DNA of 64,000 nucleotides. It comes from Candidatus Promineifilaceae bacterium. GTDB lineage: Bacteria; Chloroflexota; Anaerolineae; Promineifilales; Promineifilaceae. How positions within the stretch are numbered: the stretch's first letter is position 1; each line of letters starts with the position of its first letter. This document shows positions 2,972-59,418 of the stretch, piece by piece. Under the pieces are notes generated by a model. That model was not told where the DNA came from. It searched no databases and saw only the letters and a program-made list of their open reading frames with translations. The position numbers and the translations under genes are program-made. The DNA is taken from the NCBI GenBank assembly GCA_965223555.1, contig CBDCWU010000009.1, forward strand, positions 375,619 to 439,618. The letters are read 5' to 3'.

Positions 2972-3048
2972 GAGGCTTTTTCAGAATATATTGGATAAAA
3001 ATTTTTTCTGAAAAAGCCTAGATAAGTGATTGTAAGATCAATCACTTA
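2972..3048 (-). terminator. Two stem-loops immediately downstream of efp (bidirectional terminator region)
   Basis: Inverted repeats aggctttttcaga/tctgaaaaagcct and taagtgattg/caatcactta, with T-rich flanks on both strands. Confidence 0.5.
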
Positions 3049-3053
3049 CTCCC

Positions 3054-4174: not shown

Positions 4175-5131
4175 ATGTCTTATCAAACTGAACCCTTTAA
4201 CGTATCTGCTTATGGCGGTGAGGGCTGGTCTCCCCGTACCAACTCACTGGCTGAAGAACTCGGCACCATCTGGGGCCAAGCCGGCATAAACAATGAATGG
4301 TCACGTCTCAAATCCGTCTTGCTACATCGCCCTGGCACCGAGCTGAATGCCTCAGCCGATCCCAACAGCGTACAAATGATTGAGCCACTGGACCTGTCTC
4401 GTGCCCAGGCTCAACATGATGGCATTGCCGCGGCCTATCGTAATGCTGGGGTAACCGTCCACTATGCCGAGCCTAATTGTCAACCTACGCCCAATCAAAT
4501 GTTCGTCGCCGATCTCATGTTTGCCACACCAGAAGGCGTGATACTAGCCCGGCCCGCCTCCACCATCCGCGCCGGCGAAGAACGATATGTGGCCCGCCGC
4601 CTAGCCGATATGGGTGTCCCCATCATCCGCAGCATACGCGGCCAAGGCACCTTTGAGGGAGCTGATGCCGCCTGGATTGATCCCCAAACCGTCATCTTAG
4701 GACGTGGCTTACGTACTAATGACGAGGGCGCGGCCCAAGTCACCAGCACATTGAACGAGATGGGCGTGGAAGTCATTCAAGTAGATTTACCCTTTGGCTC
4801 CATGCACCTGATGGGGATGTTGCGCTTTTTTGATCGTGATCTGGCCATTGCTTGGCCTAGACGATTCGTGCATAAAGGCGTGGAAGCCCTCAAAGCACAC
4901 GGCTATAAAGTTGTCTATTTGCCAGATGAACAAGAAGCCACACGTGGCAAAGCCTTTAATTTTGTGACACTTGGTCCCTGTGAAATTCTGATGGCCGCCG
5001 GGAACCCCAATGCTCAAGCATTTTATGAGAGCCTGGGTGTTACTTGCCATCCCGTGCCAGTAGATGAGCTAGGTAAGGCAGCAGGGGCAATTGGTTGCCT
5101 AACAGGAATTGTGGAGAGAGAAGGGGTGTAG
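4175..5131 (+). CDS. Amidinotransferase-superfamily hydrolase (DDAH / arginine deiminase-like)
   Basis: 318 aa with a C-terminal catalytic-Cys context (GAIGCLTG), typical of the dimethylarginine dimethylaminohydrolase / arginine deiminase fold. Confidence 0.5.
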   Translation: MSYQTEPFNVSAYGGEGWSPRTNSLAEELGTIWGQAGINNEWSRLKSVLLHRPGTELNASADPNSVQMIEPLDLSRAQAQHDGIAAAYRNAGVTVHYAEPNCQPTPNQMFVADLMFATPEGVILARPASTIRAGEERYVARRLADMGVPIIRSIRGQGTFEGADAAWIDPQTVILGRGLRTNDEGAAQVTSTLNEMGVEVIQVDLPFGSMHLMGMLRFFDRDLAIAWPRRFVHKGVEALKAHGYKVVYLPDEQEATRGKAFNFVTLGPCEILMAAGNPNAQAFYESLGVTCHPVPVDELGKAAGAIGCLTGIVEREGV

Positions 5132-5188: not shown

Positions 5189-5944
5189 TTAGTGATGCAG
5201 AATCTGAGACAAAAACAGCTTCAATCGATCATCTTTGGGATTCTCAAAGAACTCATCTGGGTTATTGGTTTCCAAGATTCGACCATGATCCATGAAAATA
5301 ATACGATCAGCCACACCACGAGCAAAACCCATCTCGTGTGTCACAGCTAGAATTGTATACCCTTCCCGGGCTAGATCGGCCATCACTTCTAATACTTCCT
5401 TTACCATCTCCGGGTCTAGAGCCGAGGTTGGCTCATCAAATAGCAAAACCTCTGGTTCCATGGTCAAAGTACGGGCTATAGCCACACGCTGTTGTTGACC
5501 ACCGGACAGTTGCCCTGGATATTTGTTGGCCTGCTCAGGAATACCAACACGGGTCAACCACTTCATACCAATTTCTTCCGACTTTTCCCGTGACCATTTA
5601 CGAACGTTGATTGGTGCCAGGGTAATATTCTCCATAATTGTCAAATGGGGAAATAGGTTAAATTGTTGGAACACCATACCCACTTCACGCCGTATCTCAG
5701 CAATGTTACGTACATCATAACTCAAGGGTATGCCCTTAACGACGATATCTCCTTGACTATGCTCTTCAAGACGATTAATGGCCCGAATAAAGGTGGACTT
5801 GCCCGAGCCTGATGGCCCCAAGATAACAATCACTTCACCTTGCTTGACAGTTAAATTAACCCCCTTTAGGGCTTCGTATTCACCATACCACAAATGGACA
5901 TCTCGAACTTCAATGACGGTTTCAGCCATCGGATTTACAGCCAT
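5189..5944 (-). CDS. Polar amino-acid ABC transporter ATP-binding protein (AapP/GlnQ-like)
   Basis: Walker A GPSGSGKST, ABC signature LSGGQQQRVAIARTL, Walker B LLFDEPTSALD. Confidence 0.9.
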   Translation of the reverse strand: MAVNPMAETVIEVRDVHLWYGEYEALKGVNLTVKQGEVIVILGPSGSGKSTFIRAINRLEEHSQGDIVVKGIPLSYDVRNIAEIRREVGMVFQQFNLFPHLTIMENITLAPINVRKWSREKSEEIGMKWLTRVGIPEQANKYPGQLSGGQQQRVAIARTLTMEPEVLLFDEPTSALDPEMVKEVLEVMADLAREGYTILAVTHEMGFARGVADRIIFMDHGRILETNNPDEFFENPKDDRLKLFLSQILHH

Positions 5945-38636: not shown

Positions 38637-40799
38637 TTACAGGTCGTTGATTAGTTTTTGGAATTCGGCTTCGTCGGCCAGGAATTCTAGGAGGGTGCGA
38701 TGGATGAACATCCAGCCGCCACCCACGCGGCGCAGCAATAGACGCGCCGCCATCCCATCCAAATAGGCAACCAACTTCCGATCCCGAAAAGGAAAGGGTA
38801 GCATCCCCTGCCGCGCCAACAACCAGCGCAACACATAATGCTTTATCACCGTTTCTCCCCCATATTGCATTGGCCCGATCATAAGCCCGATCATAAGCCC
38901 GACCACCAGCCCCAGCCCCAGCCCGAAAATCAGTTCACCAATGAGCGCAAAGATTAGTCCACCTCCCAATCCGAAAATTAGAGCAACAATTAGCCCATAC
39001 ACAGGACCTGTCCGCCGTGCATTATGCCATGATGTCCGAACACCTTGATTAGGTTGGGAACGTTGAAGCGTTCTATTTGTATGAATAAGAGATTCAAGTG
39101 CAGCTATTAGCCCGAAAATTAGCACACCGCCCAACCCGACAATCAGCCCAGCAATCAGCCCAGCAGTCAGCCCAGCAATCAGCCCGAAAATTAGCCCAGC
39201 ACCCAACCCAAAAATTAGCCCAGCGATCAATCCTTGTTTGATTTTTGACCGCAAAAGGGGAGAGTGAGGGCGTAGCCAACGGATTTCTTCAACTAACTGT
39301 ATAGGACCACTATCAGATACAAAAAACTGTTTAAGACTCTCGTCACGAATGCCTATACCACCTTTGAAACCGAGAAACAATCCTATTAACAGCCAAACAA
39401 CTAACCCTGCAATTAGCCCAAGAATTAGACCAACAACCAAGCTGGTAATCAGACTAAAAATTAATCCAATAACCAGACTAACAATCAGCCCAGCAATCAG
39501 CCCAGCAATCAGCCCGAAAAGCCAACGGTAGGAACGGGGATTGGGTGGCCAGCTTGGTTGTAGCTGCTCAATGTAAAAAACAGATTGGTTATGGGCTTGC
39601 AATTGGTGGGCAAGGTGGTACAACCAGGTTAAGGCGGCATGTTCATTATACGGGCCATCAGGGGGTAAGGGGCGGCGGTGCAAGTTGTGCTTGATGTAAG
39701 CGGTAAACAGTTGGTTCCGCTTGTCAGCCAAGCTCCCGCCTGCGGGCAAGGGCGTTTCACTAAAGGTGAAGGCCATGAGGTTAAGCATGAGGGGGGATTG
39801 GGCCAGTTCGCGCCACTCGTCGTCGGTGGCCACGGCTTGGCGCAGGCCGGCCAGGGGGGCGCTGAAGCTGGCTAGGTAGTCGTCTATCTGGCTGGGGGTC
39901 AGGGGCTGGAGGCGGATGGCGCTGCTGAGGTTGAGCTGTGCTTGCAGTTGCTCGTAATCGGCCAGGCGGCTGCACACCACCATGTCGGCGGGGTGGTCGG
40001 CTTTGAAGCTGTTGATGGCTGTCACACAAGCTTCGCGCTGTTCGGCAGCCACTTCATCCAGCCCATCCAGCAGCAGTGTTAACTGGTTGCCTGTCAGCCA
40101 GTCGCGGCTCAACTGGCGCGGGGCTTGGTACTGCACCAGCAATTCCTCCACTATCCAAGCAACCAAGTCCCCGCCTTCTCGCGCCCACGAGGAGAGATTA
40201 AGGACAATGGGAATGGGCTCATTGGGGTCGGCTTGGGCGGCGGTCAGCAACTCTTGCAAGAGTTGCAGCAGGGCAATGGTTTTGCCACTGGCTGGTTCGC
40301 CCAAAATCAGCAAGGCTCGTCCCCGCGCCGCGAATATTTGGGCCAAACTGGTGTCGGCTGGAATAGGCTGCTCCTCAGGGTAAAGGCTACGGTGGGGGCG
40401 GCTAAGGGCATCATGCTGGTAGCTCATGTCCAAGGCCAGGGCCACATCGTTGTGCAGGGCTGGCTCTAATATGCCCTCAATCCAGGTGTGGTGGATGTTG
40501 TTGAGGATGTTTTGGCGGTTGCGTTGTTGGGGGTGGCTGGGGGTGGCGGTGGTCAGGGCGGCAGCGAGTTCGGCGGCATTGGGCCACGTGAGTTTGTCAC
40601 GTTCCTCACGTAAAGCGGCAATTAGTTCATCTAATTGCTCGCGCCGCTGCACGTGAGTTAGCAGGGAACGAATTTTGCTGGATTTGCGAAAGCCATCCAA
40701 CTCGTCCCAATCCACACCTAAATCCATAGCCAAACCGCGTAGCTCTTCTTGGTCGAAGCTGCGGGCGATTTGTTGGTGGAGCTGTTTGGCTAGGTTCAT
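38637..40799 (-). CDS. NLR-like NACHT/STAND NTPase: N-terminal effector-associated (death-like) adaptor domain, NACHT core, and about 290-aa glycine-zipper TM repeat insertion before the C-terminal winged-helix motif
   Basis: Walker A LILGEPASGKT. Walker B LTLLLDGLDEV. Winged-helix motif RRVGGGWMFIHRTLLEFLA at the extreme C-terminus. Three blocks of (GLIxGLIx)n. The N-terminal ~60 aa are homologous to the N-terminus of the CHAT protein. Confidence 0.8.
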   Translation of the reverse strand: MNLAKQLHQQIARSFDQEELRGLAMDLGVDWDELDGFRKSSKIRSLLTHVQRREQLDELIAALREERDKLTWPNAAELAAALTTATPSHPQQRNRQNILNNIHHTWIEGILEPALHNDVALALDMSYQHDALSRPHRSLYPEEQPIPADTSLAQIFAARGRALLILGEPASGKTIALLQLLQELLTAAQADPNEPIPIVLNLSSWAREGGDLVAWIVEELLVQYQAPRQLSRDWLTGNQLTLLLDGLDEVAAEQREACVTAINSFKADHPADMVVCSRLADYEQLQAQLNLSSAIRLQPLTPSQIDDYLASFSAPLAGLRQAVATDDEWRELAQSPLMLNLMAFTFSETPLPAGGSLADKRNQLFTAYIKHNLHRRPLPPDGPYNEHAALTWLYHLAHQLQAHNQSVFYIEQLQPSWPPNPRSYRWLFGLIAGLIAGLIVSLVIGLIFSLITSLVVGLILGLIAGLVVWLLIGLFLGFKGGIGIRDESLKQFFVSDSGPIQLVEEIRWLRPHSPLLRSKIKQGLIAGLIFGLGAGLIFGLIAGLTAGLIAGLIVGLGGVLIFGLIAALESLIHTNRTLQRSQPNQGVRTSWHNARRTGPVYGLIVALIFGLGGGLIFALIGELIFGLGLGLVVGLMIGLMIGPMQYGGETVIKHYVLRWLLARQGMLPFPFRDRKLVAYLDGMAARLLLRRVGGGWMFIHRTLLEFLADEAEFQKLINDL
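38850..39530 (-). repeat. Three arrays of 12-nt tandem codon repeats (GCTGGGCTGATT-like, encoding A-G-L-I) inside the NACHT gene
   Basis: Direct tandem DNA repeats, e.g. aatcagcccagc x4 and gatcataagccc x2. In-frame, hence copy-number variable without frameshift. Confidence 0.7.
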
Positions 40800-42358: not shown

Positions 42359-44086
42359 ATGAACAGAAGGGATCTCGTTAAGTTAATAGCCCGTGATTTT
42401 GCGGATCAAGAGGAGTTTACCGATCTGCTCTTTGAGCTTGATTTAGAATACGGCAACATAAAAGGCAGCACGATTTCGGCCAAGTCACGTGAATTAGTGA
42501 CTTACAAGGAACGCCGTGGTGAAGTGGAAGAGTTATTAACAGCAATCGTCGCGATGCGACCAAATTTACAGGAACAGTTGGAAGCATATGATGGTGTGCG
42601 GCCTGGCATGGATATTGGCAAGAACAAAGGTCAAGGCTCATCCAGGCGGGGAGGGCAATCTCATCCAGGAATGGGTGATGATACGACTGATGAGCAGCAA
42701 GGTTTAGCATACGAGAATTTTGATATACGGATTCTGACGGCGGATTCAGATGGCAGTTATCGCATTCAAGTAAATCGTAATCCCGAAAATATGGAGATGT
42801 ACGATGATGTACGGCAGAAGTTTCCCCTGGATGATTATGATTTTGTTGATTTGGTAGATTACTTGTCTGATTTGATTGCCCAAGGGAATGATGCCAAACA
42901 GTTGGGGAAAATGATGCGCGACTTGCTCTTTCCGGGGCGTATTGGCGAGATATTTTTTGCCAATATGGGCAGTATGCGGCGGCAGGGGAAGGGGTTGCGC
43001 ATTCGTTTGCGCATTGATGCGCCGGAATTGAGCAAACTACCTTGGGAATATTGTTATGGCGGGGATGAGTTTGGCTTTTTTGCTCTGGACCCGCGTACGC
43101 CGCTGGTGCGCTATATTGCACGGCCGTTTGAGACTTCAACACTAGCTGTACCCAACCCCATGAAAGTGCTGCTGGCGATTGCGGCACCCTCAGACCAAGC
43201 ACCTTTGAGTGTGGATGAGGAAGAGCGGCGGGTGCGCAGTTGGCTCAGCGTGATGGGGGATCGGGTACAGTTGCGAGTAGTGCGCAATGCCACCCCGCAG
43301 CGTCTACAGGCAGCCTTGACGGATTCACCCCACATTTTCCACTTTATTGGGCATGGTGAATTTGTAGATGGGATGGGCAAATTGGTGCTGGAGGATAATT
43401 TTGGTAAATCTGAATATCGTGATTCGGAGCAGTTGAAGGTGATGCTGCGTGGGCGTGATGTGAAGGTAGTGATTCTGAATGCTTGTAAGTCGGCGGCGGG
43501 CAATGCCCACGCCGCTTTTGCGGGGGTGGCTCCAGCCTTGGTGCAGGCAGATGTGCCGGCGGTGATTGCCATGCAGTTTAATGTGCCGGACAAGACAGCC
43601 TTGGGCTTTACGCAGGATTTGTATCGCTATTTGATGGCGGGTTATCCTCTGGATCAGGCGGTGACGGAGATGCGGGCGGGGGCGTTTAATAATGCCAATG
43701 ATAAGTATTTCTGGGGTATCCCGGCCTTGTATATGCGCTCACCAGACGGCCGTTTGTGGGAGCCTGAGGCTGAATTATTGGCTAAGTTTGAGGAGGCGCG
43801 GGAAACGGCCGTTGACCAAGCTGGTGCCACGATTCCTGAGTTATTGCAGCAAATTAAAGATGAGGTGCAGAGCGCGGGTGATGTTGATGATCGAGATCGA
43901 GAGTACATTCTGCGCGGTTTAGATGATGGTTTGAGAGCGGCCAATGAAGGAGACGGCCGAGATGTGGCCTATTATCTTAACCGTGTTATTGATGATCTGA
44001 AGCGTTCTCGTTCGGATACGGCCGAGAAAGAGATTGTGCCGAAGGTGGAATTTGTGATACAGCGGGCAGAGAACGAGATGGGTTAA
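42359..44086 (+). CDS. CHAT-domain caspase-like peptidase with N-terminal effector-associated adaptor domain
   Basis: Catalytic His (IFHFIGHGEF) and Cys (VVILNACKSAAG) of the caspase-haemoglobinase fold, preceded by the LPWEYCYG helical region. N-terminal 65 aa align with the NACHT N-terminus (IAR.F.DQEE...L..L...G...K.R.L.T...RR...EL). Confidence 0.85.
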   Translation: MNRRDLVKLIARDFADQEEFTDLLFELDLEYGNIKGSTISAKSRELVTYKERRGEVEELLTAIVAMRPNLQEQLEAYDGVRPGMDIGKNKGQGSSRRGGQSHPGMGDDTTDEQQGLAYENFDIRILTADSDGSYRIQVNRNPENMEMYDDVRQKFPLDDYDFVDLVDYLSDLIAQGNDAKQLGKMMRDLLFPGRIGEIFFANMGSMRRQGKGLRIRLRIDAPELSKLPWEYCYGGDEFGFFALDPRTPLVRYIARPFETSTLAVPNPMKVLLAIAAPSDQAPLSVDEEERRVRSWLSVMGDRVQLRVVRNATPQRLQAALTDSPHIFHFIGHGEFVDGMGKLVLEDNFGKSEYRDSEQLKVMLRGRDVKVVILNACKSAAGNAHAAFAGVAPALVQADVPAVIAMQFNVPDKTALGFTQDLYRYLMAGYPLDQAVTEMRAGAFNNANDKYFWGIPALYMRSPDGRLWEPEAELLAKFEEARETAVDQAGATIPELLQQIKDEVQSAGDVDDRDREYILRGLDDGLRAANEGDGRDVAYYLNRVIDDLKRSRSDTAEKEIVPKVEFVIQRAENEMG

Positions 44087-44238
44087 CAGTAAACGGTAAC
44101 CCATAAGGCGGCAAAGCCGCAAAATTTTTCCACAAAGGGTACAAAGGACACAAAATTTATCTATACTTGGTGTTATTCGTGACCTTCGTGGAGGACAATT
44201 TACGCTTATGGTGCACATTTCGCGCTTGTACGAAGTAA

Positions 44239-44275
44239 CCGGATTACGGTTTACCGATTACTGATTACGGAACAT
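44239..44275. repeat. Copy of ccggattacggtt.accgatta repeat element between CHAT and nuclease genes
   Basis: cggattacggtttaccgattactgattacgg compared with 18395-18425. Confidence 0.4.
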
Positions 44276-45074
44276 GCCAGATACGCTCACCCTTAGTCGC
44301 ACGAAGTTTTCTGCTTTTTTGGCTTGCCAGCGGCGCTTTGAATTGCGCTATTTGCGGCAATTGTCCTGGCCAGATGTGCCTTTGTCGGAGCAGTCGGCCT
44401 TGGTGCAGAAACGGGGGCAACAGTTTCATCAGTTGTTGGAAAGACATTTCCTAGGGCTGTCAATAGAGTTGAATGGCATTAGCGACAGTGTGGTGCGCCG
44501 ATGGTGGCTGGCATTTCAGGGCAGTAATCCAGTCTCCAGTCTCCAATCTCCAGCCTCTAGCTGGCAACGATTACCAGAACTGTCGCTCACTATTCCGGTG
44601 GGAGGTTATTTGCTGAACGGCCGTTTCGACCTCCTCGTTATAGCTGACCAACAAGCCCACATCTTTGACTGGAAAACGGGCAAACCCCAACCGGAGCGGC
44701 GTTTGCGCCATGATTGGCAAACACGCCTTTATTTGGCAATGGTAGCCGAGAGCAGCACGGCATTGGGGGCAGATTTTGCGCCGGAGCAGATTACCCTCAC
44801 CTACTGGTATGTGTCCGAACCAGATGCGCCGCGCACAATCCAGTATGATGCGGCCTGGCATAGGCAAAATTGGGCCGAGATTGAGCAGTTGGTGACACAA
44901 ATTGAGGTCGCCACAGCTGAGGGGATGTGGCCGTTAACGGATGATTGGGAGCAATGCCGTCCGTGTGCCTATCGGGCCCATTGTGGGCGACAAGAGGTTG
45001 AAACGGCCGAATCCGCTCCCGATGAAGATGCAGAAGAAGTTGTGAGTTTGCAATTGGAACCAAATATCCCATAA
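44274..45074 (+). CDS. PD-(D/E)XK nuclease with Cas4/AddB-like Fe-S cysteine cluster
   Basis: Motifs GRFDLLV ... IFDWKTGK (D ... D/ExK). One N-terminal Cys plus C-terminal C-X2-C-X5-C (CRPCAYRAHC). Confidence 0.6.
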   Translation: MPDTLTLSRTKFSAFLACQRRFELRYLRQLSWPDVPLSEQSALVQKRGQQFHQLLERHFLGLSIELNGISDSVVRRWWLAFQGSNPVSSLQSPASSWQRLPELSLTIPVGGYLLNGRFDLLVIADQQAHIFDWKTGKPQPERRLRHDWQTRLYLAMVAESSTALGADFAPEQITLTYWYVSEPDAPRTIQYDAAWHRQNWAEIEQLVTQIEVATAEGMWPLTDDWEQCRPCAYRAHCGRQEVETAESAPDEDAEEVVSLQLEPNIP

Positions 45075-47086: not shown

Positions 47087-48532
47087 TTATCGCTTTTCTG
47101 ACAGCTGTTGGCTTAGAAGTTGATTTACTAAAGCTGGATTGCCCTTACCGCGTGTGGCTTTCATCACTTGCCCCACAAACCAGCCACGCAATTTTGTCTT
47201 GCCGCCTAAATATTCTGCCACCATCTCTGGGTTGTCATGCAACACTTGGGCCACAATCTCGGCAATGGCTGCTTCATCTGAAATTTGGGCCAATCCTTTG
47301 GCTTTTACAATAGCCTGCGCCGACTGTCCTGTTGTGAACATCTCCGCCAGCACATCTTTAGCAGTGTTGTTGTTGATGGTCTGTTTATTTATTAACCCAA
47401 TCAGCTCCACCAAAGCGGCTGGGGTCACTTGAATCTCGTTAATGGTCTGTTTGTGTTCGTTCATGAGGCTGAACAGGTTGTTGATCATCCAGTTGGCCAC
47501 GGATTTGGGCTCACTGCTAGAGGCAACGGCCGTTTCAAACCATACCGCTACCTCCCTTTCCTCTGTCAGCACGCCTGCATCATAGGCTGACAAACCATAC
47601 TCCGCCTGATATCGGGCCAACTTGGCCTGCGGCAGTTCTGGCAGCGTGGCCCGCACCTCGGCCACCCAATCGTCCGAAATCTGTAGGGGCGGCAAATCTG
47701 GCTCAGGGAAGTAGCGATAATCTTCCGCCTCCTCCTTGCTGCGTTGGCTAAAGGTCTCGCGCCGCCCTTCCTGCCAACCCCGCGTCTCTTGCAGCACTGT
47801 ACCACCGGATTGGAGAACGGCCGTTTGCCGTTCAATCTCATAGGCCGTGCCATCAGCCAACACGCGGAAACTGTTTAAGTTCTTCAGCTCTGTGCGTTTG
47901 CCAAATTCACTGCTGCCCACTGGCCGAATGCTGATATTTGGCTCCACCCGCAGCACCCCCTTCTCCATATCGCCCGAATTTACTCCCAGATAGCGCAAAA
48001 TCTGCCGAATCTTGGTGGCATAAGCCCGCGCCTCCTCGCCCGAGCCAATATCAGGCTCGGACACAATTTCCAATAGCGGCACACCCGAACGATTGTAATC
48101 CACCAGTGAACCACCCTCATCCAAATGGGTTAGTTTGCCCGTATCCTCCTCCATATGCACCCGCCGCACGCCAATGCGCTTCGTTTCACCTGACTCTAAT
48201 TCAATGTCCAACCAGCCGTTTACCCCTAAGGGCAGTTCGTACTGGCTAATCTGGTAGGCCTTGGGCAAGTCGGGGTAAAAGTAATTTTTGCGGGCAAAAA
48301 TATTGTGGGCCTGGATAGTACAGTTCAGTGCCAGAGCCACCCGCATAGCAAATTCGATGGCGCGGCGGTTGATGACCGGCAGCATACCGGGCATACCGAG
48401 GCAAATGGGGCAAACGGCCGTGTTGGCTCCCGCCTCCACACTATCCACCACCCGACAGCCACAAAACATCTTGGAGTCCGTCATCAACTCCGCATGTATT
48501 TCCAACCCAATCACTGCTTCATAATTCGTCAT
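47087..48532 (-). CDS. gatB: Asp-tRNA(Asn)/Glu-tRNA(Gln) amidotransferase subunit B
   Basis: N-terminus [26 protein letters not shown] and C-terminal GatB/YqeY domain. 481 aa. Confidence 0.95.
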
Positions 48533-48535
48533 AAC

Positions 48536-48919
48536 TTAATCCACAAAAGTAAGGCTCAAATCCTGCAAATTAATAACCGCACCAGCTTGGCGCAAAAAAT
48601 CCATTCCCAGAATGCCATTAATTTCAAATCCATAATCCATCCCACCCACCTCAATTTCCAAATTTGGCACTTGCTGTTTACCGATTTGGACGTAATCTAC
48701 ACGCCTTGTGAAAACAACTTCTGTGCCACCTACACCGCGAATGGTGTGTAATGTGTCATTGGGTTCAGGGGTGATGTGAACGGCCGTTAACCGATCCGCC
48801 GCCAAAATTGTCGTCGCCGAACCCGTATCAATCAACACATTATCAACCGTGGCTGTTATACCACGGTAAGCAATCGTAATCTGGCTAAAAGGTAAATTAT
48901 CAACCAACCTGAGCTTCAT
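48536..48919 (-). CDS. Retropepsin-like (clan AA) aspartic peptidase domain protein
   Basis: DTGS active-site motif (LIDTGSATTILA). 127 aa. Confidence 0.55.
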   Translation of the reverse strand: MKLRLVDNLPFSQITIAYRGITATVDNVLIDTGSATTILAADRLTAVHITPEPNDTLHTIRGVGGTEVVFTRRVDYVQIGKQQVPNLEIEVGGMDYGFEINGILGMDFLRQAGAVINLQDLSLTFVD

Positions 48920-49178
48920 GGCTTCTGCGAACTCCTAACCAGTAGCGCACCTCAATATCCAGTTCTTCCCGACTTGTATGCACAAAATAAAACTCCCGAT
49001 CAGGATACTGCTGGTGCCAACGACGATAGCTCTGCATAGCACTGCCACCATCATCACATTGCTCAATCACCGCCAATCGCACTACTTCTCGATGGTTATC
49101 AGGCCGTGTATATGCTTCCAATGCTTCCACCACCAACCACTGTTCAGGATAAACCTGTCGTATTTCAGTCCAAATCAT
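48900..49178 (-). CDS. Hypothetical small protein co-transcribed with the aspartic peptidase gene
   Basis: ORF with probable start at MIWTEIRQ..., overlapping the peptidase gene by 20 nt. Confidence 0.35.
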   Translation of the reverse strand: MIWTEIRQVYPEQWLVVEALEAYTRPDNHREVVRLAVIEQCDDGGSAMQSYRRWHQQYPDREFYFVHTSREELDIEVRYWLGVRRSHEAQVG

Positions 49179-49184
49179 AGTCAG

Positions 49185-49290
49185 CCTCCACACTATCCAC
49201 CACCATACAGCCACAAAACATCTTCGAGTCCGTCATCAACTCCGTACACATCTCTAATCCAATCACTGCTTCATGATTCGTCATCCACAT
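49185..49290 (-). pseudogene. Diverged duplicate of the gatB 5' end (first ~35 codons, ~90% nt identity to 48432-48532)
   Basis: Encodes [34 protein letters not shown], compared with [34 protein letters not shown] for genuine GatB. Homology ends at gcctccacac on both copies. Confidence 0.8.
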
Positions 49291-50597
49291 CTTTCCAAAA
49301 TAAGAATATGTTCTTCTACATTCATCTTCGTTACTGTAGACAAGCGCGTACGCCACAACAAGGTTTCCACTTCTCGATAGTTCAATTTTTGGCAAGCAAT
49401 TAAGCTGAGAAGTTTAGCTGTATAAATTGGCACACGAAAATAACTCATCTGATCGCCAACAACAAAAGCCAATTGAGCCCCGACAGACGTAACTTGTTGC
49501 AATTGTTCCAAAACTCGAAACATGCCACCAAAATATTCTGTGACTACTCGATGATACAGGCGTTCAAAGCCAGATGTCGCTCCCCGTTCAATTCGTTTCC
49601 GTTCAATCTCCTGAGACAGTTTCTGAATTTCTGGCATATCGGCTACGTATTGGGCATCATCATCAGCAACATACACATTACGTGTATGAGAACGCAACAT
49701 CTCCTTTTTGATGGTACGTAAATCCCCTTTACTTTGCATAAAATCTAGCAAAAGCAATTCTAATCGTGTGATGCGCGAATAATCTTTCTCATTAGGGTAT
49801 GGGGGTGAGCAGATGATGAAATCTATGTTCGTATCCATAAACGCTGTCAACTTTCGTGCATCCCCTAAATAAACAATTGATTCGCCAAGCTGTTCAATCT
49901 GCTGCACTTTCACCAAATCAATCCGCATTCGGCGCAATTTATCTACAAATAAATTATAAACATCTGCATCTTTGCGCTTTTTAGACACATACACTTCTGG
50001 CCCAAACCCTAAATTAGAAGCCGCTACAAATACGTTGGCTAAAGCCAGTTGAAACAACTCTGTTAAACTATCCTCCGGTTCGTCAATTAGCAATTGTTTG
50101 ATGATTAAACATTTCTGCAAAGGGTTAGGGCTAATCCAGTTCTTGGGTAATAAGCCCCGGATAATTTCCCCATCCACTTCCATTTCTGTCTCAGCAAGCA
50201 AGCCGCCAGGTGGCAATAAATCATCGAAGGAAAGTTGTGTTGCATATTGTTTGCCCACTGCATGAATTGGTTGCCAGATTCTCTGGCATAGAGATTGAAA
50301 TCGATTATCAAATTCTGTTAAATCAATGTCCCAATTTGTTTTCACCCGACTAGCAAAAGCGGTGACTGGATTCGCATCAATGCCGATAGAATTGATCCCT
50401 CGTCGCTTACATTCCACCAAAGTTGTTCCTGTTCCCACAAATGGGTCTAGCACTACATGATTGTGCCCAATCCCAAATTTTTCGATGAGACCAGATACGA
50501 GATGATCGGGATAAGACAAAACGAAACGATACCAATCATGAATAGTTGTATCGTCTAATTGTTGCGCCGTGTGATTCGGCCGTTGTAAATCACTCAT
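49281..50597 (-). CDS. DNA methyltransferase, N6-adenine/N4-cytosine type (SPPY motif IV, alpha-class order)
   Basis: Motif I DPFVGTGTT near the N-terminus. Motif IV FIICSPPYPNE about 200 aa downstream. Confidence 0.75.
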   Translation of the reverse strand: MSDLQRPNHTAQQLDDTTIHDWYRFVLSYPDHLVSGLIEKFGIGHNHVVLDPFVGTGTTLVECKRRGINSIGIDANPVTAFASRVKTNWDIDLTEFDNRFQSLCQRIWQPIHAVGKQYATQLSFDDLLPPGGLLAETEMEVDGEIIRGLLPKNWISPNPLQKCLIIKQLLIDEPEDSLTELFQLALANVFVAASNLGFGPEVYVSKKRKDADVYNLFVDKLRRMRIDLVKVQQIEQLGESIVYLGDARKLTAFMDTNIDFIICSPPYPNEKDYSRITRLELLLLDFMQSKGDLRTIKKEMLRSHTRNVYVADDDAQYVADMPEIQKLSQEIERKRIERGATSGFERLYHRVVTEYFGGMFRVLEQLQQVTSVGAQLAFVVGDQMSYFRVPIYTAKLLSLIACQKLNYREVETLLWRTRLSTVTKMNVEEHILILERCG

Positions 50598-50725
50598 AGT
50601 TCTCGCACCAATAAGTACCGTTTATACCGTTTCGTAGCAATTTGGTCGGGATCAGTAACTGCCGTAAACTCTAAAAACAAATACGAGCCATCCGGCATTA
50701 GTTTGACCCCAATCGGTCGTATCAC

Positions 50726-51358
50726 CTAATCAGGGAACTGTGCCGCTGCAAACCGAATCATCTGCGTTACTTGAATGACCCCCAATTGGTCTTTAACCGA
50801 GTCAATTTTCGCCTCAATCGGTAAAATAAAACCTACTCCATCACTATCCAAACCAATATATAAATCATCAATTTCAATCTGACCTGTATTGGCAACCGTC
50901 GTGCGAAAATGTCCTTGCAGATGGTAAGTCGTCAACGACGTGAAAATATCTACCAAACGATTGTATCGAATACGAGCTAATGCTGCTTGTTCATCGGAAC
51001 TCTGATAGTTCAGAACAATTTGTGGCGTGGCATCAGGAATCGTTGTGACTTCAATGTCAGATGGCATATCAAAATAAGGAGAACGAGATAACTTACGAAA
51101 AGCATATTTGCTCTTTCCCATCCCCTCAATCGCCCAAGATCCATGCTGCAAAATAAATTTCGGCAAAGCAGATCTGCCAGAGCGATACGTATAAACAATA
51201 TCCGGTACATTTTTCGTCGAAAGCTGTAATCCCAGTTGCTGAATAGCTTGTTCAATATCTGCTTTCGTGAAAGGCAAGGTGTCAGCACCTTCTGCAAAAA
51301 CACTTTCAAAAACACGAATAATAACTTGATCGTAAACTTTCAAACCTTCTGTTTCCAA
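50726..51358 (-). CDS. Putative Type II restriction endonuclease (PD-ExK-like) partnered with the methyltransferase
   Basis: 210-aa protein with GLDSDGVGFILPIEAKI (D ... ExK) adjacent and co-oriented with the MTase. Assignment by context. Confidence 0.4.
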   Translation of the reverse strand: METEGLKVYDQVIIRVFESVFAEGADTLPFTKADIEQAIQQLGLQLSTKNVPDIVYTYRSGRSALPKFILQHGSWAIEGMGKSKYAFRKLSRSPYFDMPSDIEVTTIPDATPQIVLNYQSSDEQAALARIRYNRLVDIFTSLTTYHLQGHFRTTVANTGQIEIDDLYIGLDSDGVGFILPIEAKIDSVKDQLGVIQVTQMIRFAAAQFPD

Positions 51359-51370
51359 ACTCTATTCTCC

Positions 51371-52534
51371 TTACCCATGCCTTCGCATGAAGCGTTCTAG
51401 GCGGTTGAGGGCTTCCTCGATTTTTTCGTAGGCGGTGGCGTAGGAGGCCCGCATGAAGCCTGCGCCGCTGGCACCAAAGGCTTCGCCCGGAACCATAGCC
51501 ACTTCTTCCTCCTCTAGCAATTTCATGGCAAACTCATCGCCGCCCATGCCGGTACGAGCGATGGAGGGGAAGGCGTAGAAAGCGCCGCGTGGCTCAAAGC
51601 AGTCCAGTCCCAAGCTGTTAAAGCCATCCACAATCAGGCGGCGACGACGGTCATATTCGCCCCGCATTTGCTCCACGTAAGCATTCGCTTCGGGGGTGAA
51701 GGCGGTGATGGCGGCGGCTTGGGCGGTGGTGGGCGCGGACATGATGGTGTATTGATGCACTTTGCGCATGGCGGCCAGCAAGTTAGGATTGGCGCAGGCG
51801 AAACCTAGCCGCCAGCCCGTCATGGCGTAATCCTTGCTAAAGCCACCCAGCAAAATGGTGCGATCCCGCATTCCGGGCAGGGTGGGCACACAGATATGGT
51901 CAATGCCATACACCAAGCGATCATAAATCTCGTCGGAGATAACGACGAGATCATGTTTTTCGGCCACGACGGCGATATCGGCCATGATGGTGGGGGTCAT
52001 AACGGCCCCAGTGGGGTTGTTGGGATAGCCAATGAGCAAGGCTTTGGTTTTGGGGGTCACGGCCGCTTCAATGGTTTCGGCCGTTACTTGAAAATCATCT
52101 TCTACATAACAAGGCACAGTAACGGCTACACCGCCCGCCAGTGTCACTTCGGGGGCATAGGAGACGAAACAGGGTTCGGGAATGATCACTTCGTCGCCAG
52201 GGTCGAGAACGGCCGTACAGGCCAAATACAAGGCCTCACTACCACCCACCGTAATAATCACCTCCGTCTCGGCATCATAGTCCACACCATACAGCTTGGC
52301 TAAATTGGCCACTAACGCTTGTCGCAGCTCCTGAATACCGCTGTTCGAGGTATAGGCCGTCTCTCCGCGCCGCAAGGAGGCAATGCCAGCCTCCAAAATC
52401 GGCTTCGGTGTCACAAAATCTGGCTCGCCAATTCCCAGCGAAATGACATCCTTCATCGTGGCGGCAATGTCAAAAAACTTGCGAATCCCCGAAGGGGGAA
52501 CTTGTTGAACTCTTTGAGAAATGAAACGTTGCAT
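51371..52534 (-). CDS. PLP-dependent class I/II aminotransferase (AspC family)
   Basis: Lys-PLP region GFSKDYAMTGWRLGF. 387 aa. Confidence 0.8.
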   Translation of the reverse strand: MQRFISQRVQQVPPSGIRKFFDIAATMKDVISLGIGEPDFVTPKPILEAGIASLRRGETAYTSNSGIQELRQALVANLAKLYGVDYDAETEVIITVGGSEALYLACTAVLDPGDEVIIPEPCFVSYAPEVTLAGGVAVTVPCYVEDDFQVTAETIEAAVTPKTKALLIGYPNNPTGAVMTPTIMADIAVVAEKHDLVVISDEIYDRLVYGIDHICVPTLPGMRDRTILLGGFSKDYAMTGWRLGFACANPNLLAAMRKVHQYTIMSAPTTAQAAAITAFTPEANAYVEQMRGEYDRRRRLIVDGFNSLGLDCFEPRGAFYAFPSIARTGMGGDEFAMKLLEEEEVAMVPGEAFGASGAGFMRASYATAYEKIEEALNRLERFMRRHG

Positions 52535-55475: not shown

Positions 55476-57407
55476 CTACGCATCAAAACGCAGCATGACC
55501 TCTTCCAGCTTTTTAGTTGAGCCAACCATCGTTACCTTGTCACCCAAGTGTAAGCGGGTGTAGCCGTGGGAGATGATAGTGTGATGGTCGCGGCTGACGG
55601 AGAGGATGAGGACATCGAAGGGGAGTCGTAAGTCACGCAAGGTAAGTCCATGAATATCGGGGTTACGGACTTCAATATCGACCACGTCTTGGTCCCCATC
55701 CATGCCCAACAGCATAGATGCACCAATAGGTGAACGCACAAAATGTTCTAAGAGGGAGACAACGGCCGTTTGTGGTTCCACAATCAAGGCTCCTAATTCA
55801 TGGAAACGGGGTACATTTTCTCGCTCATTCAACTGAACAACAACTGTCTCTATACCAAAATATTCATATACTAGCTCGCAGATTTGGTAATTCTCATCAT
55901 CTGACAGCATCGTTACCACACTGTCTGCGTTATGTAAATCTAACTCTTGCAAAGCCTCAATTGTCCAATCTGATAGTAAATGAACGTGAATATCAACGCC
56001 ATCCAACTCTTTTTGGCGCTCGGGATTGCATGTAGCAATCTTAACCTGCCAATCATGCTGCTGTAATTGACGGGCTACTTGGGTTGAACGGGGTGTCAGA
56101 CCAAAGATTACCGCGTCACGTACCCCATCAAATTCAGCATGCTTGGCCCGAACATGGCTCTCCCCTGCCCAGCTAATACCGCGCTTGAATAGAATTGGGC
56201 CTACAATTTCATTGACAACCACAATGGAGATGATCATGGTCACAAAACCAGAATCAATTTGCGTAAATTCACTAGCGGTTTCCTCTGCCAAACCCAAAGC
56301 AACACCGGCTTGTGTGACCAAAGACATCCAGAAGAGACGGCTGCGGGCAATGGGTTCACCCGCAATCAGTCCACCAGCCGCAGAGCCGATAATAATGGCG
56401 ATCAAGCGTACCGCAAAAAGAGCCAGAGCAATGGGCCAAGTTTCCAAAAAGACAGGCAACTCTAATAAAGCACCGACTAAGGTAAAAAAGAGCACATACA
56501 CAAAGGGGCCGGCATCATGCAGCACTTTGGCGAACTCCATACGGTGCCTACTGTAATTGTTAACCAGGAAGCTGGCCATCAAGCAGACGAGGAGAGGTTC
56601 AATAAAAATTTCAAATGGCAAAACCTCATGCGTATATTCGCGCACGAAATGGAGCAAAACGAAGGTGCCATAACCCGCCATCACAATCAAAAAAGCTTTA
56701 ATAGTTTGCCCTAACTCCAAAGCGAGTATGGCGGAGATGACATGATAAAGCAGATAGCCTACAACAGCAGCAAGTGCTAATTCCAGTAACAAGAGTAAGA
56801 AAAAACTAATTTGGATGCTTTGATCGGTTAAAAGGACGTTAGCCAAGGAGGCAGTCACGGCGAAGAGGGTGATGACAACCACATCACTAACTACTGTAAC
56901 GCCTAATACGGTTTGTGTAAACGGGCCTTTGGCGCGGAGTTCGTTGACAATGGCAATGGCGGAGGATGGTGAACGGGCTGTCATAATAGCACCTGCCAAT
57001 AGTGCAACTGCTAGGCGGGTGTTGGCTGACATCTCTTGCATGAAGGGAATGTAGGCGGCAAGAAAGTAGACGGCCGTTGTAATGAGGCCAAATGTCAGCA
57101 CCACAATCCCGGCAGTTATCCAGCTAATACTGCCAAAACGACTACGGAGTTCTGGCAAATAAAGTTCACTGCCAGCCGCAAAAGCAATGAAAGCGAGCGA
57201 TAATTCCTCTAGAAAAAAGAGTCCATGCCCCATCTCGTCGGTAACAAGGTCTAGCGCAAAGGGGCCAGCTATCACACCCGTAAAAAGATACCCAGTGATA
57301 ACGGGCAGCCCCCTGCTTTTAAAAAATTTTCCTACCTGCCAGGCGGCTAAAGCCACGAGGGTAAATCGAAAAAAGTAAATGGCTAATTCTTGGTATACTT
57401 GCATCAC
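55476..57407 (-). CDS. CPA2-family cation:proton antiporter with C-terminal RCK (TrkA-N/TrkA-C) domains
   Basis: 12-13 TM Na+/H+ exchanger fold followed by an NAD-binding-like RCK and TrkA-C. 643 aa. Confidence 0.75.
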   Translation of the reverse strand: MMQVYQELAIYFFRFTLVALAAWQVGKFFKSRGLPVITGYLFTGVIAGPFALDLVTDEMGHGLFFLEELSLAFIAFAAGSELYLPELRSRFGSISWITAGIVVLTFGLITTAVYFLAAYIPFMQEMSANTRLAVALLAGAIMTARSPSSAIAIVNELRAKGPFTQTVLGVTVVSDVVVITLFAVTASLANVLLTDQSIQISFFLLLLLELALAAVVGYLLYHVISAILALELGQTIKAFLIVMAGYGTFVLLHFVREYTHEVLPFEIFIEPLLVCLMASFLVNNYSRHRMEFAKVLHDAGPFVYVLFFTLVGALLELPVFLETWPIALALFAVRLIAIIIGSAAGGLIAGEPIARSRLFWMSLVTQAGVALGLAEETASEFTQIDSGFVTMIISIVVVNEIVGPILFKRGISWAGESHVRAKHAEFDGVRDAVIFGLTPRSTQVARQLQQHDWQVKIATCNPERQKELDGVDIHVHLLSDWTIEALQELDLHNADSVVTMLSDDENYQICELVYEYFGIETVVVQLNERENVPRFHELGALIVEPQTAVVSLLEHFVRSPIGASMLLGMDGDQDVVDIEVRNPDIHGLTLRDLRLPFDVLILSVSRDHHTIISHGYTRLHLGDKVTMVGSTKKLEEVMLRFDA

Positions 57408-57492: not shown

Positions 57493-59418
57493 TTAGGCAG
57501 CAAGTCGTAGCATAACCTCTTCCAGCTTTTCTTCAGAGCCAACGATGGTCACTTTGTCACCCAAGCGCAGACGGGTGTAACCATGGGAGATAAAAGTGCG
57601 ATGACCTCGGCTAACAGACAGGATCAATACATCGAGTGGTAGACGTAGGTCGCGCAGAGTCAGGCCATCAAGCTCAGGGTTGCGGACTTCGATGTCTATG
57701 ACATCCTGGATGCCCTCTGTGCCCAAGAGCAGCGATGCTCCAACAGGCGAACGCACAAAATGTTCTAGAAGTGAGACAACGGCCGTTTGTGGCTCAACAA
57801 TTAATGCGCCCAGTTCATGGAACCGAGAGGCATTCCCCCGCTCATTCAACTGAACAACCATGGTTTCAATGCCAAAATGTTCATACACCATTTCACAAAG
57901 TTGGTAATTCTCCTCATCAGATAGCAAGGTAACGATACTATCTGCATTAGTTATATTTAGTTGACGTAGTGTTGCTTTAGTCCAATCTGCTACTAAATGG
58001 ACTTGAATGTCGCTTTCATCTAACTCCTCCTTACGTGTTTCACTGCGTGTGGCAATCACTACTTGCCAACTATGTTGTTGCAGTTGGTGAGCCAGCTGTA
58101 CTGACTGGCGCGTTAAGCCAAAGATGATGACATCGCGGACACCATCGAAGGCAGGGGCCTCAGCACGGGTATGTGATTCACCAATGCGATTAATAGCCCA
58201 TTTCAACAACGGCGGGCCTACAATTTGGTTAAGGACTATGACCCCAATAGAAAGCGTTGCTAATTCTGCACCCCAAGTATGGAATTCTACGCCAATTTCC
58301 TTAGCTAGACCTACACTTACACCTGCTTGGGTGATAAAACCAAAACCAAGTAAAGCATTACCAACACTTCGATCTCGTGCTGCCATGCTCCCAGCAAAAC
58401 TACCAATAAAAATGCCCACTAGACGGACTGTAAAGAGGATAAGAATAATGCCCCAGGCTTGACCAATCACGTCAAGCTCTAACTCAATGCCTACCAATGT
58501 AAAGAAAACAAGAAATACGAGTGGCGACATCTCTTCAATAGTGTGTTGAAAATCTGAGGCAAGGCGCGAGTAATTGGTCACATAAAACCCTGCCGTCATA
58601 CAAATCAAGAGTGGCTCAGAGAAAAGACCAACTGGAAGAGAGAAGAGGTGAAAATCATGCAACTCAACCGAAAGCACAAAAACGCCTAGCCCAATTAGCA
58701 GAATCAAACTACTTCTGAGCAATGGGACAGGAAGGCTCGTAATCGCTTGAAGTAGCAGACCAATAAGAATACCTAATACAATATCGAGGAAAATCTCAAA
58801 AATAACAAGGGCCAGAAGACCGATATTGAATGTGGCTCCTTCTACAAGCACGGCCGCAACGGAAACGGAGGCAGCAAAGATGATAATAACAACAGCATCT
58901 TTTAGAACAGTGGCTCCTAATACTTTATGCGTAAATGGGCCGCGTGCGCGCAACTCTTTGATAATTGCCAAAGCTGATGAAGGGGAACGTGCAATCATAA
59001 TCGTTGTGCCTAGCAAGGCAATCGCCAAAATCTCTCTTTGGGGCAAGGCGACCATGAAGGGTACCATATCCTTGATTGAGAGGAAGGTTATGATACCGAT
59101 AGTAAATACAGCTATAACCTGCCCACTAATGATAGAGATGATGCTACGAAAATAGCCTCGAATGACTTGTAACTCAAGCTCTGCGCCAGCAGCAAAGGCA
59201 ATAAAGGCCAACGCCATTTCGTCGAGTAAGAGAAATTGAGGAATGTTTTGCTCATGAATGAAATCAAGTACAAAGGGACCTGTGAGAATGCCAATGAATA
59301 AAAAACCGCTGATAAGGGGTAATTTGAAGCGAACAAAAATATCACCCATCTGTCGGGCAGCCATAACTAGGACAGCGAGGCCTATGAAAACAGGGGCAAT
59401 TGCTAGAAAGTTATCCAT
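57493..59418 (-). CDS. CPA2-family cation:proton antiporter, tandem paralog
   Basis: Same architecture. C-terminal ~120 aa about 80% identical to the neighbour; TM region much more divergent. Confidence 0.75.
   Translation of the reverse strand: MDNFLAIAPVFIGLAVLVMAARQMGDIFVRFKLPLISGFLFIGILTGPFVLDFIHEQNIPQFLLLDEMALAFIAFAAGAELELQVIRGYFRSIISIISGQVIAVFTIGIITFLSIKDMVPFMVALPQREILAIALLGTTIMIARSPSSALAIIKELRARGPFTHKVLGATVLKDAVVIIIFAASVSVAAVLVEGATFNIGLLALVIFEIFLDIVLGILIGLLLQAITSLPVPLLRSSLILLIGLGVFVLSVELHDFHLFSLPVGLFSEPLLICMTAGFYVTNYSRLASDFQHTIEEMSPLVFLVFFTLVGIELELDVIGQAWGIILILFTVRLVGIFIGSFAGSMAARDRSVGNALLGFGFITQAGVSVGLAKEIGVEFHTWGAELATLSIGVIVLNQIVGPPLLKWAINRIGESHTRAEAPAFDGVRDVIIFGLTRQSVQLAHQLQQHSWQVVIATRSETRKEELDESDIQVHLVADWTKATLRQLNITNADSIVTLLSDEENYQLCEMVYEHFGIETMVVQLNERGNASRFHELGALIVEPQTAVVSLLEHFVRSPVGASLLLGTEGIQDVIDIEVRNPELDGLTLRDLRLPLDVLILSVSRGHRTFISHGYTRLRLGDKVTIVGSEEKLEEVMLRLAA

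Follow-up and report, generated by a model that had tools for sequence, protein, structure and literature searches.

The window, by which we mean the whole 64,000-nt (64-kb) stretch of DNA analysed here, carries an intact gatB gene preceded on the same strand by a two-gene cassette, a second copy of the gatB 5' end (gatB'), two R-M genes and an aminotransferase gene:

47087-48532, minus strand: gatB, intact functional gene, 481 aa (PF02934, 1.1e-114; PF02637, 1.2e-49)
48414-48421, no strand assigned: palindrome ACGGCCGT, gatB codons 38-40 (from the iterated-octamer count)
48432-48532, minus strand: proximal repeat copy, gatB codons 1-34, within the live gene (repeat alignment)
48536-48919, minus strand: PDC-M08B, retropepsin-like aspartic protease, 127 aa, DTGS (PF13650, 5.5e-11; PF13975; PADLOC PDC-M08B, 2.4e-45)
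48900-49178, minus strand: PDC-M08A, conserved 92-aa protein with no assigned fold, ATG start (PADLOC PDC-M08A, 4.8e-31)
49184-49284, minus strand: distal repeat copy gatB', codons 1-34 (repeat alignment)
49281-50597, minus strand: Type II DNA methyltransferase, 438 aa, outside the repeats (PF01555; PADLOC MTase_II, 2.2e-34)
50594-51358, minus strand: Type II REase, split into 210 aa and 43 aa by an in-frame stop at 50726-50728 (PADLOC REase_II, 9.4e-59; translation compared with L005)
51371-52534, minus strand: class I/II aminotransferase, core gene, far border of the variable region (PF00155, 6e-74)

The two copies of the gatB 5' end form an ungapped direct repeat of 101 nt, 48432-48532 against 49184-49284, with 90 of 101 positions identical (89%; E = 2.5e-29 by BLASTN of one flank against the other, the comparison suggested by the first-pass annotation), and direct repeats of 35 nt or more, no further than 6 kb apart, form only three families in the 64-kb window, this one included. 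That annotation had described a repeat of the gatB start plus about 35 codons at about 90% identity, and the repeat is as it said, as are its translations of both copies; its range for the distal copy, 49185-49290, was a few bases off. On the minus strand the repeat starts exactly at ATG and ends at GAGGC (codon 34), and gatB' lies 750 bases upstream of the live gatB start. In the GatB homology search, 7996 of the 8000 candidates scored are homologues with E <= 1e-100. The 11 differences between the copies affect four codons synonymously and five non-synonymously (including His13->Cys), and those borne by gatB' include non-conservative changes. The gatB' copy is still open as a 39-codon mini-ORF (49284-49165) whose stop lies 11 nt beyond the PDC-M08A start codon; the SD-bearing spacer present before PDC-M08A in relatives has been deleted in the window, and the original joint is absent, about 22 nt having been lost there. 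No promoter or RNA element was found inside gatB'. The copies are not the template and variable repeats of a diversity-generating retroelement: no reverse transcriptase is present, and the mismatches are not confined to adenines.

Between the copies lie the DTG aspartic peptidase of 127 aa and the overlapping small ORF that had been read there from the sequence. By profile match this pair is a recognised candidate defence module, PDC-M08A/B of PADLOC-DB 2.0: the genes strongly match the A and B profiles and have the expected order, co-directional and with a 20-nt overlap, and the PDC-M08B stop codon falls 3 nt ahead of the gatB ATG. The PDC set was put forward by Payne et al. as candidate phage defence systems (bioRxiv 10.1101/2024.01.29.577857). 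Across 160 loci from many phyla the two genes are adjacent or overlapping in most. PDC-M08B is often lost or decayed while PDC-M08A is kept, which suggests that PDC-M08 may behave like a toxin-antitoxin pair. A literature search on PDC-M08 returned nothing relevant.

The R-M genes do begin immediately past the distal copy, as first noted, the methylase stop codon overlapping the gatB' ATG (ATGA, 49281-49284). They are not part of the bracketed unit: the repeats enclose the PDC-M08 pair only and the R-M genes stand outside. An 85% identical methylase orthologue is present in L001 and L005, where the REase is broken (L001) or N-terminally truncated (L005); in the window the MTase is intact and the REase interrupted, so that the pair does not amount to an intact Type II system, and the R-M genes of the window are decaying. 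The aminotransferase gene borders the variable region on its upstream side in L001, L167, L168, L170 and L173 as well.

Relatives of the window were reached via protein homologues; exact look-ups of its GatB and PDC-M08A gave no contig. All sampled relatives whose GatB is 88% identical or more (88-98%) and for which there is upstream sequence have gatB' or a remnant of it. In L168, L170, L167/L173 and L001 gatB' ends after codon 37 (..AAT|), where the real gatB continues ACGGCCGTT; in L005 its inner end is degraded, and in L174/L175 only GGAGTTGATG is left of it. Common ancestry of gatB' is also seen at codon 27, which is ATG in the window and L168 pseudo-copies and in no real copy. The within-genome repeat of gatB' and gatB spans about 108 nt at 93% identity in L168 and 98 nt at 95% in L170. 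Relatives with the same duplicated arrangement and identical copies, as in a local tandem duplication, had been named as a finding that would refute the first reading; that finding is half borne out, since the arrangement is indeed shared but the copies are not identical. Outside the clade, L169 and L172 (79-80% GatB identity) lack the cassette and carry the gatB 5' end just once, and their upstream genes differ too. Because these nearest genomes lacking gatB' differ upstream of gatB, we can only infer the state before insertion.

The shared inner end also bears on when the duplication arose. At 4-fold sites, the window is.52 identical to L168 and.50 to L001 in gatB, and.61 and.60 in the aminotransferase; the corresponding values are.59 and.55 for PDC-M08A and.67 and.51 for PDC-M08B, and the methylase is.45 identical between the window and L001. 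At synonymous sites the cassette and the methylase have thus diverged as far as the core genes, which makes the duplication an old one that did not arrive with the R-M genes. A recent co-arrival with the R-M genes is ruled out by this divergence together with the decayed REase, and the event is not a recent one, its trace being common to relatives with 88-98% GatB identity. The first-pass annotation had taken the divergence of the copies as a sign of a foreign donor. Their 89% identity is no evidence of one: most of the differences are unique to the window pseudo-copy, and the L168 and L170 copies are 93-95% identical to their real genes.

The gatB' copies are about 85-98% alike, whereas neutral sites are merely 50-67% identical, and the conservation between window and L168 is far above neutral (P < 1e-10). 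One way to account for this is that gatB' is kept as a useful leader ORF, one that would couple translation of the module's first gene to that of the gene upstream. Besides the conservation itself, gatB' is open in the window, L168 and L170, its stop overlapping the next start in the window and L170 and lying 17 nt upstream of it in L168; in the window the methylase stop runs into the gatB' ATG and the SD spacer before PDC-M08A is gone, both as coupling would have it. But the gatB' start codon is missing in L001, L005 and L167/L173, L001 also has an in-frame stop, gatB' has nearly vanished from L174/L175, and the window copy bears its non-conservative changes. Each pseudo-copy moreover shares lineage-specific states, synonymous ones included, with its own genome's real gatB, a pattern more in keeping with gene conversion than with a peptide under selection. 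We regard a retained leader as quite improbable. Patchy gene conversion is the likely reason that the gatB' copies stay alike. Because of such conversion, the phylogenetic affinity of gatB' cannot name a donor; affinities are scrambled by gene conversion and by recombination between lineages. A relic of 100 nt can evidently last long, probably through gene conversion, and hence the divergence of such a repeat is a poor clock and a poor sign of foreign origin.

The upstream copy gatB' is a real, old leftover of a cassette insertion, an event of a known kind, and the proposal that the repeat marks the insertion of foreign genes at the gatB 5' end is upheld. Pfam annotation of the window genes and of the syntenic relatives shows no integrase or transposase at the site, which also lacks tRNA genes and Rfam hits, and neither the window region nor the syntenic loci contain a tyrosine or serine recombinase gene, so the repeats do not qualify as an attL/attR duplication. 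Targeting by a tRNA or an integrase was rejected accordingly. A transposon or IS target-site duplication was set aside as well, in agreement with the original argument against one: the repeat is long (about 101-111 nt), the cassette ends lack terminal inverted repeats, and there is no transposase. The best fit, to which we give a probability of about 0.55, is an integrase-free insertion of PDC-M08 with long target duplication at gatB. PDC-M08A and PDC-M08B would have inserted into the extreme 5' end of the essential gatB gene in an ancestor of this Chloroflexota clade, using no integrase or transposase and duplicating a target of about 111 nt (codons 1-37). The copy contiguous with gatB would have stayed functional, now translated right behind the protease gene, and the upstream copy would have become the non-functional relic gatB'. 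Since then, the R-M system and other genes have piled up upstream of gatB', in sister lineages PDC-M08 has been swapped in situ for DUF433/DUF5615, MNT/HepT or a small membrane-protein gene, and gatB' has eroded from its outer side to a varying extent, its likeness to gatB probably renewed in part by gene conversion.

One feature sits awkwardly with a duplication made by a staggered break: a repeat beginning exactly at a start codon, as seems to be the case in the window and L083, or ending at a stop codon, as in L060, is not expected of it. Such limits fit a gene end carried by a donor at least as well. Homology-anchored integration, the mechanism first proposed but taken here in either polarity, would start from donor DNA in which the cassette already lay beside gatB, one copy being xenologous from the start, and could have proceeded by a single crossover of a circular fragment in the gatB 5' homology, or by a homologous end plus an illegitimate join after codon 37. 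Repeats that are coding only, from the start codon here and in L083 and up to the stop codon in L060, are what would be seen if donor and recipient had just the conserved gene end in common. Among clade members and outgroups alike, gatB keeps 79-89% nucleotide identity in its opening 140 nt, enough to serve as an anchor. In L060 another PDC-M08 insertion, independent of this one, adjoins gatB, and alleles are reticulate: the L001 pseudo-copy has AGC..AAG, found elsewhere only in the real gatB of L168. Yet this account pushes the problem back, leaving the cassette's first arrival beside gatB unexplained; it has no identifiable donor, neither copy shows a foreign affinity, real and pseudo-copies being intermingled by gene conversion, and the R-M genes, which the repeats do not enclose, match the core genes in age. 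We consider it possible though rather unlikely.

Independent insertions of PDC-M08 elsewhere bear on both the preferred insertion with target duplication and its alternatives. In L060 the module is flanked by the duplicated last ~31 codons of gatB, in L083 by 27 codons from the start of a zinc-finger gene, the copies being 97.5% identical, and in L155 by a long duplication of host sequence. Of about 146 independent PDC-M08 loci, 7 are strong cases of flanking duplication, compared with 3 among 308 control positions (P = 0.015, Fisher test), a modest enrichment in which some cases are repeat elements and not target duplications (attC-like hairpins in L158/L162; L061). Nor does the duplication always stop at a gene boundary, a rule that was considered and dropped: the L155 repeat takes in a promoter, and those of L158/L162 and L061 resemble repeat elements.

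In L168, L170, L167 and L001 the ancestral duplication (codons 1-37) has its inner boundary at the 5' edge of the palindrome ACGGCCGT, which makes the palindrome a possible break site. A breakpoint would land at a palindrome edge by chance with a probability of about 0.002-0.005, and the coincidence is a single observation. ACGGCCGT occurs 57 times in the 64-kb window where 0.47 would be expected, an excess of more than 100-fold, with one copy roughly every 1.1 kb, mostly inside genes; AACGGCCGTT occurs 27 times against 0.05 expected, and ACGGCCGT is frequent as well in L001, L005 and L167-L170. Like cyanobacterial HIP1, GCGATCGC (Elhai 2015, PMC4390886), ACGGCCGT is an 8-nt palindrome, highly iterated and mostly genic, and it has the frequency by which a HIP-type sequence is recognised, an octameric palindrome at about one per kb and orders of magnitude over expectation; unlike HIP1, its sequence is ACGGCCGT and its host is Chloroflexota-like, not cyanobacterial. 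A literature search that included the text of Elhai 2015 (PMC4390886) returned no mention of ACGGCCGT. For the origin of such palindromes and their possible role as break sites, a HIP-like palindrome in a Chloroflexota-like lineage may outweigh our main finding.

The interval between the aminotransferase gene and gatB is a hotspot of gene turnover. In close relatives the position directly upstream of gatB is held instead by DUF433/DUF5615, MNT/HepT or a 105-aa membrane protein, making four different occupants within one narrow clade. Recurrent breakage at ACGGCCGT could in principle remake the same duplication each time, in a recombinase-independent exchange site whose constant boundary reflects site specificity and not descent. 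Three unrelated modules (PDC-M08, DUF433/DUF5615 and MNT/HepT) do lie behind copies of gatB' that share one end nucleotide, at the palindrome edge, and the high within-genome identity in L168 and L170 is a further point in favour. However, in L170 the spacer TTGGTTCGAGGTTTATTATTG is similar to the PDC-M08A leader TAGAGTGGAGGTTCATCATG, and L171 has kept the protease-gatB junction GATTGAGTT|ATG behind its DUF5615 gene, remnants which indicate that the module was replaced inside an existing structure. The aberrant gatB' start ATGAAT common to L168 and L170, which flank different modules, argues for common descent, and the 64-kb window, with its 57 palindromes, has no other repeat of this kind. 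L174/L175 swapped their module while deleting most of gatB', and thus the repeat is not needed for turnover. A site that remakes its own duplication is accordingly a long shot. A broader speculation, to which we also assign a low probability, is that gatB'/gatB repeats and ACGGCCGT constitute a recombinase-free slot in which palindromes break, gene ends are duplicated and TA or defence modules are swapped, PDC-M08 spreading in this way (L060, L083, L155). If so, the slot would be protected and co-transcribed, and PDC-M08, DUF433/DUF5615 and MNT/HepT would have been captured there repeatedly.

Several known systems resemble the insertion with target duplication that we favour at gatB. In homology-facilitated illegitimate recombination, reportedly described by de Vries and Wackernagel and by Prudhomme et al. 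in 2002, foreign DNA is likewise fixed by a conserved anchor gene with no dedicated recombinase. Its classical outcome is insertion with deletion, not duplication, whereas the window shows duplication. Elements that integrate into protein-coding genes and bring a replacement end include e14 or phage 21 in the icd gene of E. coli, and mobile endonuclease ORFs of fungal mitochondria with a duplicated gene C-terminus; there too the live gene keeps one terminus, a diverged copy lies across the insert and the repeat stops at the gene boundary. The closest parallel is the insertion of R-M gene complexes with long target duplication, which Nobusato et al. are said to have described in 2000 and whose mechanism has, to our knowledge, never been established experimentally. 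The window shares with it a small unit of selfish or defence genes that lacks both integrase and transposase, an insert of lower GC than its surroundings, and flanking direct repeats of tens to hundreds of bp that represent one target sequence and may overlap host gene ends. Integrase-free R-M insertions with target duplications of 46-423 bp have been documented (Furuta, Abe & Kobayashi 2010, PMC2853133), defined by flanking direct repeats of more than 30 bp, found here in the window, L168 and L170, by the lack of a mobile element in or beside the insert, also found here, by alignment of the repeat to a single-copy target in a related genome free of the insert, for which L169 and L172, with their different upstream genes, are the nearest but not clean counterparts, and by R and M genes both inside the insert, where the gatB locus has PDC-M08A/B only. 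Unlike those cases, the cargo in the window is the PDC-M08 pair with the R-M genes outside the repeats, and the event is ancient, clade-wide and inside an essential gene, the module having since been swapped in some lineages. The gatB locus may thus extend the footprint of long target duplication, so far one of R-M systems, to a small TA-like candidate defence module in an essential gene.

The 5' end of gatB is present twice in the window, as the first-pass annotation had claimed, and the copies lie in a run from an aminotransferase gene to gatB in which every gene is co-directional and stops and starts overlap or nearly abut:

52534-51371, minus strand, aminotransferase
51358-50594, minus strand, Type II restriction endonuclease (REase), in-frame stop at 50728-50726
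50597-49281, minus strand, Type II methyltransferase (MTase)
49284-49184, minus strand, gatB', the displaced copy of the gatB 5' end
49178-48900, minus strand, 92-aa protein gene (PDC-M08A)
48919-48536, minus strand, 127-aa retropepsin-like protease gene (PDC-M08B)
48532-47087, minus strand, gatB

The MTase stop overlaps the ATG of gatB', and the gatB ATG lies 3 nt after the protease stop. The copies align over 101 nt without gaps, from the ATG to codon 34, at 89% identity (E = 2.5e-29), and since a scan of the whole window for direct repeats of at least 35 nt lying within 6 kb of each other gave just three families, the repeat is real and far beyond chance. Their 11 differences make 4 synonymous and 5 non-synonymous codons, with the conserved His13 among those changed. 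A 39-codon mini-ORF (49165-49284) is still open in gatB', chained between the methylase gene and PDC-M08A via overlapping stop and start codons, and translation of PDC-M08A may be coupled to this relic ORF.

PF13650 and PF13975 both match the protease, which carries a DTGS motif; the 92-aa protein has no match in Pfam or NCBIfam and belongs to a tightly conserved family (267 matches; 58-86% identity among those aligned). PADLOC identifies them as PDC-M08B (2.4e-45) and PDC-M08A (4.8e-31), a system in its authors' candidate defence set that was proposed by "guilt-by-embedding" (bioRxiv 10.1101/2024.01.29.577857). Among 160 loci taken from genomes and metagenomes across many phyla, most have A next to or overlapping B; in many others A is kept and B is truncated or absent (e.g. 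L008, L069, L101/L103 and L152, which have no full protease match), the decay that would be expected if A acted as an antitoxin and B were the toxic partner. Another defence-type locus may lie at 42359-45074, some 2-5 kb downstream of gatB, where a CHAT-domain protein (its L167/L173 orthologues match Pfam EAD7 + CHAT) adjoins a PD-(D/E)xK (PDDEXK_1) protein.

Relatives, reached via GatB homologues and their contigs, carry the following upstream of gatB.

Loci of relatives, with GatB identity to the window
L168 (90%): aminotransferase, two small genes, nearly intact gatB' (codons 1-37, 93% identity with its own gatB), PDC-M08A/B; without R-M
L001, L005 (88%): decayed REase, MTase, 291-296-aa gene, gatB' of about codons 11-37, PDC-M08A/B
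L167 (98%), L173 (in the same 90%-identity cluster as the window GatB; flanking synteny equal to the window's on both sides): aminotransferase, gatB' codons 18-37, DUF433/DUF5615 pair
L171 (92%): short contig, same DUF5615 gene end before gatB
L170 (90%): gatB' (95% identity with its own gatB), MNT/HepT pair
L174, L175 (88%): MTase, 291-aa gene, about 10 nt of gatB', 105-aa membrane-protein gene
L169, L172 (79-80%): gatB 5' end present once, preceded by a cytochrome c peroxidase gene; without cassette

L168, L170, L167/L173 and L001 still have the inner end of gatB', and in all of them it falls at the same nucleotide, closing on AAT after codon 37; in the window about 22 nt are lost there, including the Shine-Dalgarno spacer that precedes PDC-M08A in relatives. 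At 4-fold degenerate sites, identity of the window to L168 and L001 is.52 and.50 for gatB,.61 and.60 for the aminotransferase,.59 and.55 for PDC-M08A, and.67 and.51 for PDC-M08B; for the MTase it is.45 to L001 (not applicable to L168). Cassette and methylase have thus descended together with the core genes from the clade ancestor. The REase is damaged differently in each lineage: it is broken in L001, N-terminally truncated in L005, and interrupted in the window at 50726-50728 (minus; ..AAQFPD*VIRPIGVKL, where L005 has ..AQFPDLSVRPIGVKL). The window methylase is intact, and the R-M system is on its way to a solitary methylase by decay. The duplication is therefore neither fresh nor connected with the acquisition of the R-M genes, a link that had been proposed earlier.

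Within this clade (at least 88% GatB identity) one position holds four different occupants: PDC-M08, DUF433/DUF5615 (L167:2827-3717, L173:5098-5988), MNT/HepT (L170:4197-4991) and the 105-aa membrane-protein gene (L174:3627-3955), the last three directly upstream of gatB. L170 retains, after the AAT, a degenerate PDC-M08A leader and start (CGAGGTTTATTATTG vs GGAGGTTCATCATG), L171 retains the protease-gatB junction (GATTGAGTT, up to the ATG) behind DUF5615, and the gatB' of L168 and L170 have an aberrant ATGAAT start in common, though the modules behind them differ. These remnants argue that PDC-M08 was replaced in place inside an older gatB'...gatB frame; L174 and L175 show that gatB' is not needed for module turnover.

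How did the second copy arise? The first-pass annotation proposed that the cassette brought a gene end along with it and integrated by homology, and took the divergence of the copies (about 90% identity) as a sign of a foreign donor. Neutral sequence between these lineages should be about 45-50% different, and the pseudo-copies differ far less (window vs L168, 1/47 and 8/91 positions; window vs L001, 6/47; P < 1e-6 to 1e-13). Lineage-specific states also link them to the real gatB of their own genome (in L005 CGA at codon 27, in L170 GGA9 and GTA28, in L168 codons 35-37), and pseudo-specific states are kept too, such as ATG27 in the gatB' of the window and L168. Patchy gene conversion with exchange between lineages is the simplest account, so the 89% identity says nothing of a donor, and the phylogenetic affinity of the copy relative to gatB cannot serve as a donor test. 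A travelling gene end would fit the tendency of repeat boundaries to coincide exactly with start or stop codons (in the window, L083 and L060), which a staggered-break model does not predict, and we consider it possible but rather unlikely. We rate target duplication above it, at a probability of roughly 0.55: the PDC-M08 module would have inserted into the start of gatB without a recombinase, duplicating its target, in an old event. A search of the site for an integrase, transposase, tRNA gene, inverted terminal repeats or Rfam element found none.

Independent PDC-M08 insertions in unrelated genomes left comparable footprints. L060 has the last ~31 gatB codons, through the stop codon, duplicated around the module (2997-3073, 3783-3859); in L083 a solo A gene, just 305 nt long, is enclosed by copies of codons 1-27 of a zinc-finger (MqsA-like) gene (4888-4968, 5274-5354; 81 nt, 97.5%); and the L155 duplication spans at least 99 nt, promoter included (5-103, 1050-1148). 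Of about 146 independent loci, 7 have strong flanking repeats; among 308 control positions drawn at random from those loci the count is 3 (Fisher P = 0.015). The enrichment is real but modest, and some of the flanking sequences (L158/L162, L061) are repeat elements and not duplicated targets. In L158 (2470-2509, 3663-3702) and L162 (704-742, 1897-1935) the repeats around PDC-M08 are 40 nt long, contain a hairpin and resemble integron attC sites; the module itself has a tyrosine-recombinase gene upstream, so some PDC-M08 copies may move in the manner of integron cassettes.

On its inner side the ancestral duplication stops exactly where a copy (48414-48421) of the palindrome ACGGCCGT has its 5' edge, a single observation with a chance of ~0.002-0.005 that makes this site a lead as the break site. 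ACGGCCGT occurs 57 times in the window vs 0.47 expected, about once per 1.1 kb (another copy is at 48780-48787), and the decamer AACGGCCGTT 27 times vs 0.05; the low-GC R-M stretch 48788-52208 has zero ACGGCCGT copies. It is as dense in the clade's other loci (L001, L005, L167-L170), not in other PDC-M08 hosts. Other repetition in the window includes a coding region at 38869-39527 with 15 overlapping copies of a 68-nt unit, whose 12-nt periodicity implies a repeat protein of 4-residue period, and a 300-nt direct repeat (55477-55776 vs 57494-57793; 76% identity, spacing 2017 nt), possibly tandem paralogues: the first copy is the 3' end of a 643-aa transporter gene (55476-57407) and the second lies just beyond its start.

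We conclude that the gatB repeat is a relic that has persisted for a long time after an old PDC-M08 insertion, made without a recombinase at a hotspot of rapid module turnover. The palindrome iteration, of which we found no mention in the searchable literature, resembles cyanobacterial HIP1, but in a Chloroflexota-like lineage. The closest documented process to the insertion itself is "insertion with long target duplication", described for R-M systems with 46-423-bp unique-target duplications and no mobility gene in many bacteria (PMC2853133), and the gatB case is best taken as a new example of this known kind of event.
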